DNA of 63,366 nucleotides, filler included, from Atractiella rhizophila (lineage: Eukaryota): NCBI GenBank assembly GCA_021432655.1. It is 2 parts of 2 records of this genome, joined end to end, with 100 filler letters (N's around TTAATTAATTAA, not from the genome) between each part and the next. Parts side by side here need not be neighbours in the genome. Positions count along the whole stretch, not along the records: positions 31,750 to 63,366 come from MU271693.1; 1 more part is not named here. One strand, given 5' to 3'. Below, piece by piece: positions 26,468-55,220 of this stretch (position 1 is its first letter; each line of letters begins with the position of its first letter). The notes under the pieces were generated by a model. The model worked only from the letters and a program-made list of their open reading frames with translations, had not been told where the DNA came from and made no database searches. Position numbers and translations under genes: made by a program.

Positions 26468-28559
26468 ATGGCTGCACCTCATTACATTCGCCAGCGCACC
26501 CCTTCCACCTCAACACTTCGTGGCGCGCCATCCCTCACATTACGCACTGCAGCCTCCAATGCTTCTCTTTCAGGCCGTGCGCATCCCTCACCCGCCATCA
26601 CACCTGCATCGAGGGGGCGTCATTCGTTGTATGGAGTGGAGGATCGCGTTGTTTTAGATTTGGGAAGGAGGGCATGGAAAGTGGGGTTTGGGGGAGAAGC
26701 AAGACCTAGAGGAGTGGTCCTAGTTGAAGAAAGCGAAGAGGGTAAAGAGGAGACGGAGGAAGAGGAGGAAGAGAAGATGAAAGAGAGACTGAGAAAGGTA
26801 TTTTTCGAGTGCGTTTCTTCTTTCTCGCAGGCAGGAGGAGAGGTAAGAGGATGAAGTGTTGACTGACATCTACCTCTGGCGTTACTAGACTACTCATGAT
26901 TGACCCTAAGGCTAGGAAAGTCATCGTTATTGAGCCACCATTAATGCCCATGAAGATGAAGGAGAGGATTGCGAGGCTACTCTTTGAGAATCTACAGGTT
27001 TGTTTCCTCTTTCGCGAGCAGGAGAAGCTCAATTCTAAACACGCAGGTTCCATCAGTCTCTTTTGCGCCCACTCACCTGCTTTCTCTCATCACCACTGGG
27101 TCAATAACGGGCCTGGTCGTCGACTGTGGTCATTGTGAGACGACGGTAGTGCCAGTAAGTTTATATTACATCATGGCACAATCTTAAGAAGTTTATCCAG
27201 ATCTTCTCCTCGCGTCCACTCTATCCTATCCTCGTAACGACAGTTGTATCCGGTCGCCGCCTAACTCAACGCCTACGTGCCTTGTTACTACACTTCGGAA
27301 AGTTCTTCCCCAACCCAACGAACCTGAACCAGATCGCCATGTCTTCCTTCAAGCTCAAAGCCACAGACCTGGTTGGTGTGCCGAAAGAGGTGTTAACGAA
27401 AGAAGTGTGCGAGGACATCAAATCCCGTGCGCTTTTCGTCGGGGAGCCTTTCAATGTTCCGTCATCCAGAGAGAGTGACCTCGCTTCTGCTAACCAGGAG
27501 AAGCAGAAGACAGAGAGACTTTTGCCAACGGAGAAACTGGAGGAGGACGATGAGGAATTCCTGGCTGCGCTCAAGGAGAGATATATCGCTAACTCTTCGG
27601 CTGCCTCTCTATCAATCCCGATACATTATCCTCAGACGGCTCTCGGATCCACTAACGTGCTAAGAGGAACAATTGTAGTTCCGGGATGGATTAGGGAGAG
27701 AGCAACGGAACTTCTATTTGAGAGAGGAGATGAGGATGAGAAAAGCATCACGGAAGCGATACTGGAGTGTCTATTGAAAGCCAGTCCTCCATTCTGCAGC
27801 GTTATTCGCTCTTGACGGATGTAATAGGTACCAACTGACCTCCGCATCCCTCTCGCCAATTCTATCCTTGTTGCTGGTGGAACGGCCATGCTCCCAGGCT
27901 TCATCCCTCGACTACGACTAGAGCTAATTTCAGCCCTCGATTCAGCTTCTGTATCTTCTTCTTCCGCAGGAGAAGAACAGACACTCGATCCCTTCGAACG
28001 GCCGTCAACTCCATCATCTACCTCCTCCACCTCATTTCGGCGGAAGCGGAAGCGGGAAGCGCTGGAGGTGTACCGCAAACGATCAAAGTTCACACCGCTT
28101 TCATCCCTCGCGGGAAAGAACATTATTGCCGTTGTCAACGATCCATCCCCTCCTCCTTTGGCGGTAGACGAAGCACCTACTCCAATGCCCACCTCCCCCA
28201 TGCACTCTAGGCATGGTTCCCTTGCCACCCCCAGACATCACTCTCAGCCGTTGCCACCGAAAGACACAAAATCCTATACTCTGCCTTTGCCAAAGGTGCC
28301 CTATGCTGCAAATGCGGGGAAAGCACCGCATTTCACCCCCAGTTTATTACCTTGGATCGGGGGCAGTCTTGCGGGCATACTAAAGACGGGAGGAGAGGAG
28401 ATCTTGAGGGAGCGGTGGGATATGGGTGTGCCTGTCGAAGGTGAAGAGGAAGACGAGGTGCAAGAAGACCAGGTTCTCCCGAGCGACAAGCCGAAAGAGC
28501 GGAGGAAACTCGATCTCCCCGACTGGACGAGGAAAGATCCGACGTCAGGGTCCGCTTGA
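26468..28559 (+). CDS. Actin-related protein, ARP10/ACTR10-like
   Basis: VVLDLGRRAWKVGFGGE, VIVIEPPL, LFENLQ|VPS, GLVVDCGHCET, ILVAGGTAMLPG, WIGGSL. Confidence 0.8.
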
Positions 28560-31649: not shown

Positions 31650-31749
31650 NNNNNNNNNNNNNNNNNNNNNNNNNNNNNNNNNNNNNNNNNNNNTTAATTA
31701 ATTAANNNNNNNNNNNNNNNNNNNNNNNNNNNNNNNNNNNNNNNNNNNN
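31650..31749. other. Artificial contig spacer (44 N + TTAATTAATTAA + 44 N)
   Basis: Symmetric N runs around a 12-mer that has stop codons in all six frames. Confidence 0.95.
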
Positions 31750-37170: not shown

Positions 37171-37943
37171 TACCTCTGGATGATATTACTGTCTGCCGGA
37201 AAGAGCTTCGGAACCAGCCCTATGAACCAGTTAAACGAGTAAACCACAACCTTAATTTCCACGACGGTGCATAATTTCGTGTAAGACGCGCACAAGTAAT
37301 GCATGCCTTTCTTATACGAGGGGCGCAATCTAGCAGCAACACGTTGTGATCCCAATAGAAGTTGCACACGTTAGTTGTCAAAACATCAGAGCTATAACTC
37401 CAAACAGTAAGTTCTACCAGAATAGAAAGTAGGAATATTCCTCCTAGCCAACCCTCACTGTCACCAAGTTCGGAAGGACTCACACAGACGCAGTCAATGT
37501 CAGCCCAAACTTCTATGCCAAAATGCTAACTTTCCCAAATATAGAGCAATCCAAGGCAACTTGCGGTATGGTGTAGATGCGAAGTGTAACGGGCTATTTC
37601 GTCATTCTTGAAGCTGGAAAGTCTACAATATGAGTCATCAACAACGACCCAAAAGGACGAAGGGAGAGCTCATGGTAGGATTGTGTTGCAGGTTGCAGAA
37701 GGCTTAAAGGAAAAGGACTCATTGCATACTTGAACTCAGGCAAGCCATTTCTTACTGAATGTTCGTTGTGGTCTCTGCCTGGCGTGGGGATAATATTGAT
37801 GGTCCTGTTTATTGCACGAGCGACCTCTTGCTATAGAAAGAACAAACTGCATATTTCAACACACATTCAACATCACGATTGGATGATCAATTGATCCTCT
37901 AAGAGTCTCATTCGCAGCCTGCTTCCTAATACTACTCTCTCTG

Positions 37944-46298: not shown

Positions 46299-49058
46299 TC
46301 ACTCTGAATCTTGGGGTATAAGTTTCCCAGGGTTCTAGTACAAGTCGAGCACGGCATCAACGGTTTCGCACCACGATTGCAGGGAAACCCACATACCATT
46401 ATATTTTTTGGATCTAGTAGCCTCTTGATCTTCCTCATCAAGTTGATGGTCTCACTCCCTAGTTCCGCTTCCAAATAATCGCGTTTCCCGATCCCTACAC
46501 CGTGTTCTCCTACAATCACCAACCATTAACGTTGGTCAAAAAAAACAATAATTCGGTGTTCAGCGCACCAGTACAAGTGCCTTCTAATCTCTGCGCTCGC
46601 TTCACCATTCGATCGACCACTCCTTCAGCCTTTCGGAACTCCTCCTCATTCCGAAATGCAAGCAAGGCATGGAAGTTCCCTTCAATGCAGCGTTCAACCA
46701 AGAGACTCCTTCAAAGATGAGGGGCGTACCGTCTCCAGCATGTCCTACGATCGGACCTACCAGCCCAGATGCAGTAATGTCTTCCTTAGTCTCTTTTGCC
46801 AGCGTTGGCAGTTTAGAAATAGGGACGCCTGCTGGCCAGTAAGTGTTCACGATTTGCACTAAACGGAATGAGACGCACAGACATCTGTGGTCCAGATTCT
46901 GCATCCAGGAACAAAATCAATGGCAGAATATAATGCGACTTTCCGTGCCGCCCAAATATCTTCTTTCTCTTTTTCCGAGCGAGCAAAAGTGAATTTTGAG
47001 CCGCCATGCGTCGACACGATTTTACCTGGTACCGTCAATATGTGGAAGGGGTTGAAACAACAGGACATACTGGTTTGCGCTACATCGTTCTTGATCTGTT
47101 GATCCGTCCCTGCGAATTTTATGAACAACCTGTGACATGCAGTCAGCACACAGAGCCAAATGTCATGGTGATCCAATAGGAGGAAAGTATGTGAAGTAGC
47201 GTACGAAGGTCTTTCGTCCCACGTCCTCCCGGTTCCACCACTCTTGTTGACCGCTTGCATCATGACATCATCCAAGAGCTCCAAACATTGAACTCCAACT
47301 CCATGTTGTATCAAATCCGTGACCGTAGCCGCTGCTTCTTCAAAAGTGTTGAAAGAGCAGACACCGACAGACGTGGGTAGGAGGGGAGCAAGCTTAAGGG
47401 TTGCTTTACACCAGATAATCGATTAGGACAAGGGGAGAGGACTGAGGGGACGTTTACCTTCGGTTATTATCCCCAGTGTCCCCTCAGCGCCTATGAAAAG
47501 TCTACCCAAATCAGGACCAGCTGACGACTTCCTAAATCGCCAATCTAGAACGTCAACTTCTCCAGCCTAAACAACCGAGGAGGGAAACGTACTTCGCCCG
47601 TTGTCGTGTCTTTACAATCTGTCCATCAGCGGTGACGACCGTGAGGTTGAGAACGTTCTCGCTTTCCCCCTCGGTCAGTTCTAGCTTTGAGGTAGACATA
47701 GAGGAGGCGAACCGCATCGTTCCATATCTAAGTTTTACTTTATTCAGCCCAGTCGATATGGGAAAGGGAAAGGAAAGAGAAAAGTTGCGGAAACGGACCT
47801 AACCGCATTTGTCCCACTGCAGCCTTTCCGCACAGCATCAATATGCATGGAGCATGTCTGGAGAGGGAGAGCTGTACCTGTGGAAATCATGCCACCTTCC
47901 ACAAAACACCGTTAGTTCACCATCTACACAACTTCATGGAGAAGAGCTGACATACCGATTAACGCTCCTGGTCCAGGATCCACTGGGAAAAGAAGCTTGT
48001 ATGCCTTGAGATGCTCGTTTAAGTCCTGACAGGCATCACCAGTCGTCAGCCGACCTAGCTGTATGGGAGATAGAGGGCAAGCAACTATGTACCTCGTAGC
48101 CTACCCCCGGCTGCACTACCACATCTAGATCTCCCTCTATTTCAAAATCCGACGAGCAGATCAGTATCACATGTGTTCCTGAGCTGGAGCTGTAACGGAC
48201 CATGAACCTCCAAAATCCGGTCCATATACTCCGAAAAACTGAGTGTCCAGCTCCTTCCTCTCTTCCATTCCCCTTGTTTCTGCGCGAAAGGAGATTCATG
48301 GTGCCCTTTTCCGTGCCCCGCTTTCTCATGGGATGGCGAAGTAGGGGAGGAGGAAGGTGCATTGAAGTGTCCTTCAAGAGAGGTACCGCCTGAGTACGGA
48401 ACGAGGGGGATCGAGTATTTGTTGGCCAGCTGAACGATGGAGAGGACGTCGGATGTTGAACTGGTTTATTCGGATGAGAGAGATTAAGGGAGGGGAGGGA
48501 TGGAGTGACGAACCGTGGGTAAATAACTGCTCCTGGGGTTTCGAGAACAGGATGGTCTATCCAAAGAATAATCAGTCAGAGTGAGAGAGACAGAGAAAGA
48601 AGACTCACAGCTCCACGAACTTCCCGCTTTGGACTCTAAGATCTCCTTATCCTCACTCAAGCATTCAGGCGGCAACAAGTCCCTTAATTCCACCATTGCG
48701 TCCTCCCACTGCTCCTCCGTCACCTTAACCTCACTTCCACCAAAAGTCTTCAACTTTTTTGCTTCTTCCTCCCTGGCTCGTTTGGCGCCATCGTAAGTGC
48801 CGTACATGTACAACTGCTCACATCGGATGTCACTTTCCATTTGGCATTCCAATCGTGTGAGGGAAGACGCACAGCTCCGCCTACAAATCCAGTGAGCGAA
48901 ATGAGTGTTCCAGTCGACCATTTCTGGGCTTCTTTCCTCGAACTGCTTGGTACAGGTCGAGAGAGTGGGTGCTGCCTTTTTGGGCCAGTTGTCTGGAAGC
49001 GAACCCCTCCCATTCGCCGTGGCGACTGACGAAGGAGGGTGACACGCGACATGTTCAT
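46299..49058 (-). CDS. DLD1: Mitochondrial D-lactate dehydrogenase (cytochrome), FAD-linked oxidase family
   Basis: Presequence-like N-terminus, [64 protein letters not shown]. Confidence 0.9.
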
Positions 49059-49390
49059 TATTCGAAGTAGGCGGTTAGCTACAACGCGACGGTGGGCTGG
49101 TCAACAAAGGCTAGCAGGCTTTTTTGTGTTGGATTTAGAGTTGTTTAGAGGGGACGGAAGGTGAGGCTGTTCGTCAGCAAGTTTGCGCGATCACCTGTGC
49201 CGATTCCCACAAGAGGCATTCTGCCGTGCTGCGTGTTGCGCTTGTGCCATGCCAGAGGGCATAGTGGGATGATATGAGGAACATTCAATTTTTGTAATCA
49301 TTACATGGCGAGACTTTTGCTCAGAGAACAGGACAACATTGGCACCCGACAGGCACTCTCTCCTTCAGCCATCCATTCTGTGATTTGTGT

Positions 49391-51435
49391 TTAGACAGGC
49401 ACGCAAATTATGGAGCTAACGCTGATGCCCAGCAGGTCTCCTCTCAATCTGCACAATCACAGTCATCGAGGTAGGAAGTCAAGTTCAGGTCGAAGTAAAG
49501 AAAGGGAATGAACGCACGCTTCAATCTTAAATCCGCTCTGTTCGATCAACGCAGTCCAAGCGCTTATTGTCCTCTCTTCTCCATTATTCAAATTCATCAT
49601 TCCCAAGTCGAGGGTCTGAGAATCCCAGAATCATTCACCACTTGGGCTGACAGGATGACAATGACAAAAGTGACGAACGTAAGGGAAAGCTAATCCTCCT
49701 CCAAAGTTCGACAATAGCGGAGGAGGGGCACTCGGCGGCTGGTAGATTGAGGAAGGAGGGAGCGTCGCATCAGGGGCAGAGTATTTAAGGATCCGGTCGA
49801 GGATTACGAGTTTGGATTTGGTGGAACTGGACGTCATTGCCTCCTTGACTTTCTTGAGGATCTTGACTACATCCTGAGCTGGCCAATCGTGTCTGCCACA
49901 GTCTCAGGAAATACAGTTCAATGAGCGATGGGAGAACGCACAGAACGTGTCGGAAGAAGTAGACAGCAGCGTCCTTTGGTACCACTTCCTCCAAGAAACT
50001 CTTCCCGATGATAGTCACATCACCATTCTTCAAAGCCTCGGCATCGTTAGACTCCCAGAACTTCTCAGCCGCACCGACGATACCAGGTAAGTCTTGAACA
50101 ACAAACTTGAGTCCTGCATTCTTGTTTCTGATGGTGAGACACTGCTGTCCCACGTTCCCTCCAAGGTCTACGATTGTTGAACCCGCCTGTCATACGCTCA
50201 GCGACTTTGAGAAGCTGGAATGAAAGAGGAGAGGTGATGGAAGTCAGGTCTCACGGGTATGGCATCCCAGTCATAAGCCTTCACGTCAAGTAAATGTTCG
50301 TCAATATCGATTCTGTTTGGAAGAGGAGAGAACGAAATGGAAACGAACATCAAGCACCTCGTCTCCCCTCCCAAACCTTTCTGTGCCCACCATCCCAGCA
50401 GTAAATCTGGCTAGTCTAGCTTTATTTTCCGGCGAATGAAACCACTCCCACATCCCACCGTCGAAGTTGAACGCTACCTTCATGCAATCCTCGACCCTTG
50501 AAACTTGACCGAGAGTGGGTGAACGCAGGAGCTCGGGAAGATAGGCAGAGAGCTGGTATACGTCCGCTGTGCTGCATCCCACAGGATCGTTCAGCTGAGG
50601 AGAAGACGGGAGGGGAATGGTTGCAGGAGCACGTACGTGTGTGCGAGAAGTGCGGCTACGCCGTCAGAGTCGGTGTACCAATCCGCCTCTCTGGAGCCAT
50701 GTTCAAATCTCTCCATGCTTTCTGAGGAGCTAACGACTCACTCTTGAGATTTTAGGACTTTAAAATCCTTTCTAGTTGAAAGCGCCACTGACAACCTGTT
50801 GTTGGCGAAAGTATCCGGCTTGACCTCCGTAAAGAAGTGATGGGTAGTGAGCAGCCTGAGGATCCTGCCTATTCACACATCATAAGGGCGGAGGGGGGAG
50901 TTCAAGTTCGTGAAGATCTAGAGTAGTGAGTGAGTCATCTACGGTAACGTCTGCGAATACGTTTCTTTCCTCACGGAAAAGGTCTAGACTTGCTACGACA
51001 GTGTGGAAAGCATGCGGTAGGTGAAGGTTAGTCGTTCGATCAACTACGACTACTGGTAGCTGACAACTTTTTTTCCGTGGAGTACATCGATACTGGGGAC
51101 TTAACTACCCTCGCTTCTGCCAATAGTAACCACGAACATGCGTCAACTCACGAGACCAGCTGGGGGGACGTTACCGACGATAAGCACTTTGTAAGAGACA
51201 CTCCGACGGATAGAGGGGAGACTAGTCGTAACTATTCCCGTAGTTAACTTTATCGACGTGATGGGTTGTCGGCACTCTTAGCGGTAGCTTCGAGTGCAGG
51301 GACTCGAGAACAGTTGGCAACCTGGCCTCCCGTACGTGTAACTACTCTATCCCTTCGTCTGTCCCATGCTCGGCTCTTTCGAGTCACGCAGATAAAGATA
51401 TATAGAGTGGGGTTTAGTGTCGCTGTTAGTCGGAT
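49391..51435 (-). CDS. SAM-dependent O-methyltransferase (methyltransf_2 type); 5' exons lie in mirrored sequence, start codon in the gap
   Basis: RILRLLTTHHFFTEVKPDTFANNRLS, IVDLGGNVG, VVQDLP, VYFFRHVL|HDWP, NGEERT. The N-terminal exons are readable only as the un-reversed complement of 50885-51385. Confidence 0.9.
50883..51435. other. Mirrored (reversed, non-complemented) segment 1
   Basis: The complement read left to right gives three in-phase OMT exons with gtacgc, gtgagg and gtgcgt donors. Confidence 0.92.
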
Positions 51436-51620
51436 NNNNNNNNNNNNNNNNNNNNNNNNNNNNNNNNNNNNNNNNNNNNNNNNNNNNNNNNNNNNNNNNN
51501 NNNNNNNNNNNNNNNNNNNNNNNNNNNNNNNNNNNNNNNNNNNNNNNNNNNNNNNNNNNNNNNNNNNNNNNNNNNNNNNNNNNNNNNNNNNNNNNNNNNN
51601 NNNNNNNNNNNNNNNNNNNN
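51436..51620. other. Assembly gap (N run)
   Basis: 185 N. Confidence 0.99.
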
Positions 51621-53008
51621 TTTCCGTAGTCGATTCGGAATAAATTTCGGCGTACTTCTGCAGTTCCTTCCATTCTTTTGGAGGTTTTCTCTGGATTAGA
51701 GAGCGTTTAAAGTGAGCGTTAAAGTTTTGGACTAGGCATCTTGTTCGTTATTACGTTGTTTATTTACTTTTTAACTCTATAGTATTATTTTGTGTAGCCA
51801 ATGCTAACTATCTCTATCATTAACTACGCGGTCATGTATTTTACTTTCACAAAACCCAAGCTTACAAAGCGTTTGCCTAAAATTCAGTCTGTCTTTACTC
51901 GGAGGGTATTCCGATCAGTTATAAAGTTATAATACTTTCGACATCTGACAACTCAACAGAACTGCTAATATCAACGACGATACGTTGTCGACTTATGGTC
52001 TGTCCTAGTAACTCCGTCAGTTATAAAGTGTTATCGTAATTGTTGCCACTGGGGACGCTGTGGATCTTTATCATCCGTTGCAGGTATTTACCGCTAGTGC
52101 TTAGAGTTTCTTCTAGCTTTTACTGTTAGCACGAGCACGTTTTTGTAGTCTTTCTTCCTGCTTCACCGTATGGCTGTGCCTACCGTCCGTGAGCCGTGAA
52201 AGAGAGAGGAAAAGACAGGAAGAGGGGAGAGAAGAAGGGGGTTGCAAGGTAAGTACACGTTTCCATACAGGCAGGCATCTGGAACCACGAGAACCTAGCC
52301 CTAACTCAGACCTCGGTCAACCCGTAGAAGGTGGACTCCCTTCTTCAGCTCTACTAGTCGAAGTCGAAGACCTCGCAGGTACGAGCGACAAGATCACTGG
52401 GACCATATCGACATCCTCTCTCGACCCTACGCTCAAGGTCACGCCACCCTAACTCTCCATTCCGAGCCCTAACTTCTCCTCCGTTTTTTTCCAGCAAACA
52501 AAAACCTCCTTCGTTTAAAAAGTTTACATAATCCCAATCCCGAAACTGCAAACCGGAGTTGTTTGGACTGCGACCCTCTGCTTAAAAGTAGAAGATCGGC
52601 TTATTCTACCACCTGACAAGGACCGCGGTGCAACCCTACTCGACTTTCTATCTTACACCTTGATATACCTTAGAAATCGTCAAGCGTCACCTGGTGTTCA
52701 CTCGACTCAGGTTTACTGGAAAAGGTGCTTTCATCAGTCCCTGTGTATCGCATGAGACGAAAAATGCGCACTTCGCCGAACACCTATAACACATGTGACA
52801 AGCTTAGAAAACAAGAGTGTAGTACCGCCTCGACGAACGCGGTCGATATTGGTTCAACCGTTACTTTGCTCGCCAAGTAATGTCGATCTTGTAGATCTTT
52901 CCAGGTAAAAAGTAAAATGTACCACATCTGTGACATGTTCACTCGGAACTGAACTTAAACCACTTAGGAATACTCGTAAGGACGACACGTTCCAAAGTAA
53001 AGAAAGAT
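51621..53008. other. Mirrored (reversed, non-complemented) segment 2
   Basis: Read backwards, 52381 to 52173 is an ATG-initiated 69-codon exon ending ACHPC-CG|gtatgc. It splices in phase to cacag|A at 53023. Confidence 0.9.
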
Positions 53009-53949
53009 CAAGTTATTCACAGACAACGAAGGATCCGCTGCTCCGGCACACGTCCAGTCTGCGAACGCTGCCTCCAACGAAACATCGAGGCCGAATGCAA
53101 CTACGACGTTCGGCCCCGTATGCGAGGAAAAGGAATCAAGACACTTCTAGCCGAGCTGGAGCGGATACCGGACGAGAGTGGACAAGCACCGGTGAAGCTA
53201 CCTAAAGAATGGGAGGAACGGTGCATCAACCAATTGAGAGAGAGGAAAAGGTTGAAAATTGAGGGTGGGAATCCGGTCATCGTTAATGGAGAGATCGTAT
53301 GGTTCGATGAGGAGGGAGATGCTGAACAGATGTCGATGAAGTTGAGAGAGAATGGGGCCGTCATACTCCCTCAAGAGTTTTTCACTGGTGGAGACATGCC
53401 TGTGGCCAACGGGAGCTCGAAACGGCCCAACGCGGCGTGTGGACCATGCAAGTTCGTATCCATTCGCACAAGTCTGGAATATGCATGTTAATGGAGATGA
53501 ATAGGGAACGAAAAGTACGGTGCATCGTGGAGGACAAAATCACAGGGATGTGCAGCAGCTGCTTGAAACGCGGACTGGTCTGTCACCCATCCAATGTCGT
53601 CGTTCCCATCCAAGTTTCACTCCCACCTCCGCTGCTCCCCTCCCATCTCCAACCGACAATGTCAGCGCTACGCGACCTCGTCCCCGACCTCCCCATCGAC
53701 CCGACGATCGCGAACCAGACTCAATCATTCTACACCAACGCCAGGAGCGAACTCCAACCAAGGATACCGACATCTAACCATCAACATCACCCGCAATTGC
53801 CCATCGCGCATGCGCATGGAATACCACATTTACATCAGGGACAGCTTGTACTCGAGGCCCCTCCGTTGGCAGTTGGGAGAGAGACATTTGGACGACCTGA
53901 TACCTCTGCGGAGGCGGGTGATGTCGTTGCTCCCCGTCGGCATCGTTAA
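52173..53949 (+). CDS. Transcription factor with two Zn(II)2Cys6 clusters (exon 1 in mirrored sequence)
   Basis: Cluster 1: ACHPCR|QRRIRCSGTRPVCERCLQRNIEAEC. Cluster 2: ACGPCK|ERKVRCIVEDKITGMCSSCLKRGLVC. Confidence 0.85.
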
Positions 53950-54381
53950 TACTGGAGCATGACTTTTATTTTAGAGTACTTTAGTCGTTAGGTTGTCCTT
54001 TTATCGTTTTCTCACACTACCAAGGTCGCAGTGATTATGTAGCTGTCTCAAGCTGTCTCTTTGTATCCTGTCGATCTGTTGAACAGTTCTCCAACCTGCC
54101 TCATTTCCTTCATACATACATACATCTCCATCGTACTTCAGCACTTGATTGTGTCTCTCAGCTTCGTCTGCTTCTACTCAAATGTGTAACGTAGCCAGGA
54201 GTATATAAGCAAAAACGTATCCACCTCATCTTCATCCACAGTGATCTACACCAAACAGCCGATCGGACTTGGAGGTGTAGCATTCCCAACAACTTCCACG
54301 ACTACAACTCCTTTGGCATCTCTCCCTTCCTCCCAGGCGATCCAGCTGCTAGAAGGACTAGACGGCCAACACTCACCAAAG

Positions 54382-55220
54382 ATGACCCAAAACCTGAGTC
54401 TGTACAGCACGACGGCCGTCCTAATACTGGACAACGAGGGTCAGCGATTGCTCGCCAAATACTATACACACCCAACCGTGGAGTCTTCCGCCGCCCCTTC
54501 TGCTGGTGGCGTTGCGGGTGCCGGCGCATCGAGCAGCGCAAATGGGGCCGGAAAGGGAGGACCGTTTGCGACGGTGAAGGAGCAGAGAGCGTTCGAGACT
54601 AGCATTTGGGAGAAAACGAAGAAAGTACCCAGTGCGCGTTCCTTTTCTCTTTTGTATTTCTGAGGCTGATGGGCTGTTTGTTCTGTTTCTCTTCTACTTT
54701 TTGCTCTTGCTTTGCACTCTTGCATTTCTATTTTGCACTTTGCGTTTGCTTTCTGTTGGTTGGATGCAAAGACGGGGAGATCCTCCTACACGCCTCCCAT
54801 CTCATCCTCTACAAACCATCCGTCGACCTCACCCTTTACATTGTCGGACCGGAGAGCGAGAACGAGCTGATGCTGAGTTCGCTGCTCAACTCGTTATACG
54901 AGAGTTTGAGCACCGTCCTGAGGCACCAATTCGAAAAGAGGAGCGTATTGGAGAACCTCGACTTGGTAGTTTTGACGGTGGATGAGACGGTGGACGATGG
55001 GTGGGTCTCTTCCTATCTTACATTCTGACGACGTCTTGACATATTTGGACACATGTGCAGAATCATCCTCGAACTCGACTCGCCAGCCATCCTCTCCCGC
55101 GTCTCAAGACCTCGAACGGACGCTGGAGTGCAGATTGCGGACATTACGATCAATGAAGAGACGCTGAGACAGGCGTTTGGGACGATCAGGGATCGGGTGA
55201 GGCGATTGGCTGATTCTTAG
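54382..55220 (+). CDS. RET3: Coatomer subunit zeta
   Basis: NLSLYSTTAVLILDNEGQRLLAKYY, KEQRAFE, ENELML, LENLDLVVLTVDETVDDG|IILE. Confidence 0.93.

Follow-up and report, generated by a model that had tools for sequence, protein, structure and literature searches.

Letter-reversed sequence on both flanks of a scaffold gap in an Atractiella rhizophila genome record

Why should the first exons of a fungal gene be readable only when the DNA is complemented and its letter order is left as it stands? The question was raised by positions 50883–51435 of the window analysed here (the whole stretch of 63,366 nt from Atractiella rhizophila, assembly GCA_021432655.1), next to a run of N, where the original prediction had placed the N-terminus of an O-methyltransferase in the un-reversed complement. 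Our analysis showed that 50893–51435 and 51621–53012, which flank the 185-N gap, are almost certainly a sequence-handling artefact, in which the true plus strand was written in reverse letter order without being complemented; the letters are, equivalently, the minus strand complemented with its order kept. The reversal of both blocks is a property of the record and not a real biological feature, and the DNA of the organism is regular. Twenty public runs contain part of the normal flank 47900–50882, and four runs were compared with the window over 49000–55000, namely X1 and X2 (DNA contigs from one sample), X3 (RNA contigs, with splice joints) and X7 (from a root metatranscriptome).

The two genes beside the gap

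The normally oriented exon at window positions 49941–50186 on the minus strand was used as the query, and it led to a protein of 476 aa (P0001), which is named in its source as an S-adenosyl-L-methionine-dependent methyltransferase of Atractiella rhizophila and has 99% identity over the query exon. In tblastn, residues 129–476 of P0001 were found on the normal minus strand from 50872 down to 49394, and residues 7–138 had matches only after the letters of the window were reversed, at 50894–51019, 51076–51234 and 51255–51410 (E 1.8e-39 and 3.9e-23). This agreed with the original prediction that no normal frame explains the stretch, and complement-only translation of 50883–51435 reproduced the three peptides that it had quoted. 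The spliced model was made of the three hidden exons and eight normal exons set by RNA joints; in the region of exons 4–11, seven CT..AC joints were present in X3 and four of these were also present in X7. This model agreed with P0001 at 468 of 470 aligned positions, with two substitutions, and only the first six residues were missing. The hidden exons had zero differences from residues 7–138 of P0001 over 132 residues and their phase ran on into the normal exon, and with the overhang of X3 (Table 1) this bore out the predicted in-phase junction to the exon at 50868.

Pfam analysis of P0001 showed PF00891 (O-methyltransferase) at residues 236–391 with 72.3 bits (cut-off 22.3) and PF08100 (dimerisation) at residues 78–159 with 28.1 bits (cut-off 25.6), so that a large part of the dimerisation domain is encoded by the hidden exons. 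The scan was done on P0001, from which the mended window product differs at 2 residues, so it is through P0001 that the mended gene matches both families of the fungal class I SAM-dependent O-methyltransferases (PF00891 + PF08100). Compared with these enzymes the gene itself is ordinary, and it lies head to head with a gene for a Zn2Cys6 transcription factor.

The first coding exon of this factor is readable only in reverse order. Read from 52381 down to 52173, it ends with ACHPCR, which holds the first two zinc-cluster cysteines, and is followed by a gtatgc donor, and exon 2 continues from 53023 with QRRIRCSGTRPVCERC. PF00172 was found on exon 2 (E 6.9e-06, 26.5 bits, cut-off 21) over profile positions 8–37 of 39, and the part of the cluster that is absent from exon 2 is exactly what the hidden exon 1 supplies. 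The six-cysteine cluster is thus made up of the profile match on exon 2 and the first two cysteines from exon 1, joined by RNA contig X3 (the last exon base of this splice also fits 53022). A homologue search with exon 2 among longer proteins found none. Altogether, the six normal frames miss exons 1–3 of the minus-strand O-methyltransferase gene and exon 1 of the plus-strand Zn2Cys6 factor gene, by which the first protein loses 132 residues and the second about 70.

In the window, the O-methyltransferase and Zn2Cys6 factor genes (49391–53949) diverge from a shared upstream region. A divergent layout of enzyme and regulator is common in fungal secondary-metabolite clusters. The biology of the locus offers nothing new, as both the O-methyltransferase and the zinc-cluster regulator next to it are ordinary.

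Table 1 Features at the gap and positions at which read contigs leave or join the window
Feature	Position in the window	Strand or reading	Basis or detail
Left reversed block, 543 nt	50893–51435	.	DNA contigs X1/X2, polarity score
Scaffold gap, 185 N	51436–51620	.	N run between both reversed blocks
Right reversed block, 1392 nt	51621–53012	.	DNA contigs X1/X2, polarity score
O-methyltransferase exon 1, partial (first six codons beyond the block, in the gap)	50894–51010	Complement-only, left to right	P0001 from residue 7
Intron 1, gt..ag, 65 nt	51011–51075	Complement-only	
Exon 2	51076–51198	Complement-only	P0001 match
Intron 2, gt..ag, 56 nt	51199–51254	Complement-only	
Exon 3, much of the dimerisation domain	51255–51384	Complement-only	P0001 match, RNA contig X3
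Intron 3, 5' part	51385–51435	Complement-only	Total intron 75 nt, gt..ag
Intron 3, 3' part	50869–50892	−, normal orientation	Splice confirmed by RNA contig X3
Exons 4–11 through the stop codon	49391–50868	−	tblastn, residues 129–476, and RNA joints
Zn2Cys6 factor exon 1, coding part	52173–52381	Reverse-only, right to left	Open frame, RNA contig X3
Zn2Cys6 factor exon 2, normal orientation	53023–53451	+	PF00172, RNA joint 53451/53505
X1, X2 (DNA)	Window followed to 50892		Overhang is the reversal of 51406–51435, 30/30 letters
X1, X2 (DNA)	Window followed from 53013		Overhang is the reversal of 51621–51650, 30/30 letters
X3 (RNA)	Leaves the window at 50868		Overhang is the reversal of 51355–51384, 30/30; exon 3 to exon 4 splice of the O-methyltransferase
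X3 (RNA)	Before 53022		Overhang is reverse-only 52203 to 52174, 30/30; exon 1 to exon 2 splice of the Zn2Cys6 factor

Edges and order of the reversed blocks in read contigs

The overhangs of the DNA contigs, of which 30 letters each were printed, set the edges of both blocks and gave the true neighbours: 51435 adjoins 50892, and 51621 adjoins 53013. The view of the original prediction, that the stretch is the true plus strand written backwards, was confirmed by the overhang behind 50892, and its left breakpoint at 50882/50883 had to be moved ten bases rightward, because the DNA contigs place it at 50892/50893. The shifted breakpoint explains why the leading residues SRL of the predicted protein do not match P0001, which has N-R-P-P-Q there; these residues were spurious and came from normally oriented letters. 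Reads spanning 50882/50883 as written had been named as evidence against a reversal, and the contigs do span this point but part from the window ten bases further on, at 50892/50893, so that in spirit the refutation fails. As to its extent, reversal of the left flank held, but it is not the only one, since the right flank is also reversed. For the interior of the 1392-nt block, the basis is the polarity scores together with exon 1 of the transcription factor. No contig of the four runs aligned to 50893–53012 as written, and such a hole alone is no evidence.

Each block was turned round in place, separately, and the mended order runs from 1–50892 to 51435 down to 50893, across the gap to 53012 down to 51621, and then from 53013 onward. 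In this order the first intron of the transcription factor has 562 nt (51621–52172 plus 53013–53022), a length that the combination of RNA joint and DNA overhang requires and that is unusual here, as the nine other RNA-supported introns in 49000–55000 have 49–140 nt. A division of the right flank into several sub-blocks, which would shorten this intron, was ruled out by the DNA contigs, in which 51621 and 53013 are adjacent.

The real sequence at the N run should contain the start codon of the O-methyltransferase and part of the shared upstream region. Beyond 50892 the X1/X2 contigs extend for another 902 letters and so exceed the 543-nt block by 359, which means that real gap sequence exists in public reads, and these 359 extra letters presumably include the missing start codon.

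X1, X2, X3 and X7 show many single-letter differences from the window and are not proven source reads of the record. P0001 carries the allele of the runs (for example, C>T at 49973, which gives its N344), and X1/X2 have two alleles at some sites (for example, 202/327 depth at 49811) and elsewhere the non-window allele only. The single-letter differences and the presence of the runs' allele in P0001 indicate that the runs represent another haplotype or isolate, and relative to X1/X2 the window seems to come from a second haplotype or a close isolate. The next downstream gene has a 140-nt GT..AG intron within 54631–54777 in X3, whereas X7 skips 145 nt there and has 5 other letters between the two sides, a discrepancy that reflects either alternative splicing or a strain difference.

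Polarity of word composition

The word composition of real DNA is not symmetric under letter reversal. We therefore scored polarity, using neither reads nor homology, as log-odds of 4- to 6-letter words versus their reversals, with training on both strands of the window, and in the first scan the strongly negative windows were all confined to the interval from about 50900 to 53000, where they occurred on either side of the gap. The scan was then repeated with training outside 50893–53012 and with N-free windows of 500 and 300 nt. Inside this zone all 19 N-free 500-nt windows were negative, with a mean of −33 to −43, as were 27 of 27 N-free 300-nt windows, and the zone means mirrored the background means in sign: the 1193 background windows of 500 nt had a mean of +28 to +42, with 1–2% below zero and none below −10.2. 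The score of the left block was −79.9 versus +30.7 for the adjoining 543 nt on the left, and that of the right block was −106.5 versus +75.1 for 53013–53555. The negative scores on both sides of the gap indicate that the right flank is reversed too.

A blind maximal-segment scan ranked 50881–53003 at the top with a score of 191.7, and the next segment reached 19.3. Polarity scanning thus pinpointed the fault to within 12 bases without reads or homologues, which makes it a cheap screen for other assemblies. Comparison of the longest open frames between normal and reversed frames gave no discrimination. Weak dips were also seen at 26701–26923, 37184–37435 and 47316–47743, with scores of 17–19 that are within noise, and short reversed patches of less than about 300 nt may lie at these positions.

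Origin of the reversal

The two blocks adjoin the N run and were reversed separately, and from this we infer that the most likely origin is a gap-closing or extension step in which the contig ends were lengthened into the gap and the new letters were entered in backward order. The same string would result if the step had taken the complement of a stored minus strand and left its order unchanged. The original prediction of a gap-extension or scaffolding bug fits the observed blocks in both respects, and the cause itself is still read from their arrangement. Ordinary gap-flank misassemblies (inversions, misoriented contigs and faulty gap filling) share with this locus the position at both gap edges, the sharp breakpoints contradicted by read contigs and the broken gene models. 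A misoriented contig, however, is reverse-complemented and readable in the six normal frames, whereas here the letters are only reversed, a form that is impossible for a DNA molecule relative to its neighbours. Phrase searches of the available literature turned up no account of such letter-reversed patches in assemblies, and nothing on the assembly was found in the available part of the one paper that names Atractiella rhizophila.

Chance can be dismissed as a source of the complement-only open frames. Whichever of the twelve readings is taken, chance alone does produce open frames of 40–240 codons, but here 132 of 132 residues equal P0001, the introns end in gt..ag and the phase is kept into the normal exon. 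Reversal of the whole of 50893–53012 as one string, gap included, would account for the single continuous negative segment that the polarity scan shows across the gap, yet it predicts 53012 beside 50892 and 50893 beside 53013, the opposite of what the DNA overhangs show, and it would put the O-methyltransferase exons inside the transcription factor intron; we regard it as next to impossible. An error made after assembly, by format conversion, by manual patching of the record or in the preparation of this window, deserves somewhat more weight and is still improbable. The window has visibly been processed, as an artificial spacer at 31650–31749 joins separate scaffolds, but a generic conversion is unlikely to hit precisely both sides of a single gap and leave the other 61 kb intact, and the sequence flanking the spacer has positive scores (+8 to +38).

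The remaining alternative is that the letters are truly in the DNA of the organism, for instance through 'swinger' replication, the systematic exchange of A with T and C with G. We know of no established replication mechanism that copies a strand with the same polarity. Similar stretches in public records have been interpreted as biology: in the available part of PMC4942731, A<->T + C<->G is given as the only rule under which swinger DNA has been reported, with a 16S rRNA gene inside an insect mitogenome as an example, and the cases taken from GenBank records by Seligmann are interpreted as an unusual polymerase state. Going by that partial description of the published cases, they share with our locus a sharp-edged stretch in a regular record that makes sense only after complementing without reversing. 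In that literature swinger DNA is a polymerase state, whereas here the pattern belongs to the record: an exchanged stretch would have to be present in the organism's own molecules, and X1, X2 and X3 carry the regular order, with normal splicing in the RNA contigs. Both blocks moreover stop exactly at the N run, and a swinger origin of these blocks can hardly be entertained.

If the backward-writing extension step were systematic, every gap extension would be written backwards, and patches would be expected at many gap flanks in this assembly and in others from the same pipeline, possibly also at closed gaps without N, and some published 'swinger DNA' might belong to the same class of artefact; we offer this only as a tentative extension. 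Because the letters are only reversed, BLAST and other aligners, the usual read mapping and six-frame gene finders detect nothing in such stretches, which silently shorten gene models and inflate the counts of 'missing' domains. The practical value of the finding lies in repair of the record and in the screening of other assemblies, and it advises caution against taking complement-only stretches in public records for exotic biology.

Apart from the gap, the only N runs in the window are those of the spacer (31650–31693 and 31706–31749), and the polarity on its flanks is normal. Phrase searches of the literature for the spacer motif gave nothing relevant. The spacer consists of 44 N, TTAATTAATTAA and another 44 N and has stops in all six frames, and the window seems to combine two scaffolds, 1–31649 and 31750 onward, that are separate from each other.
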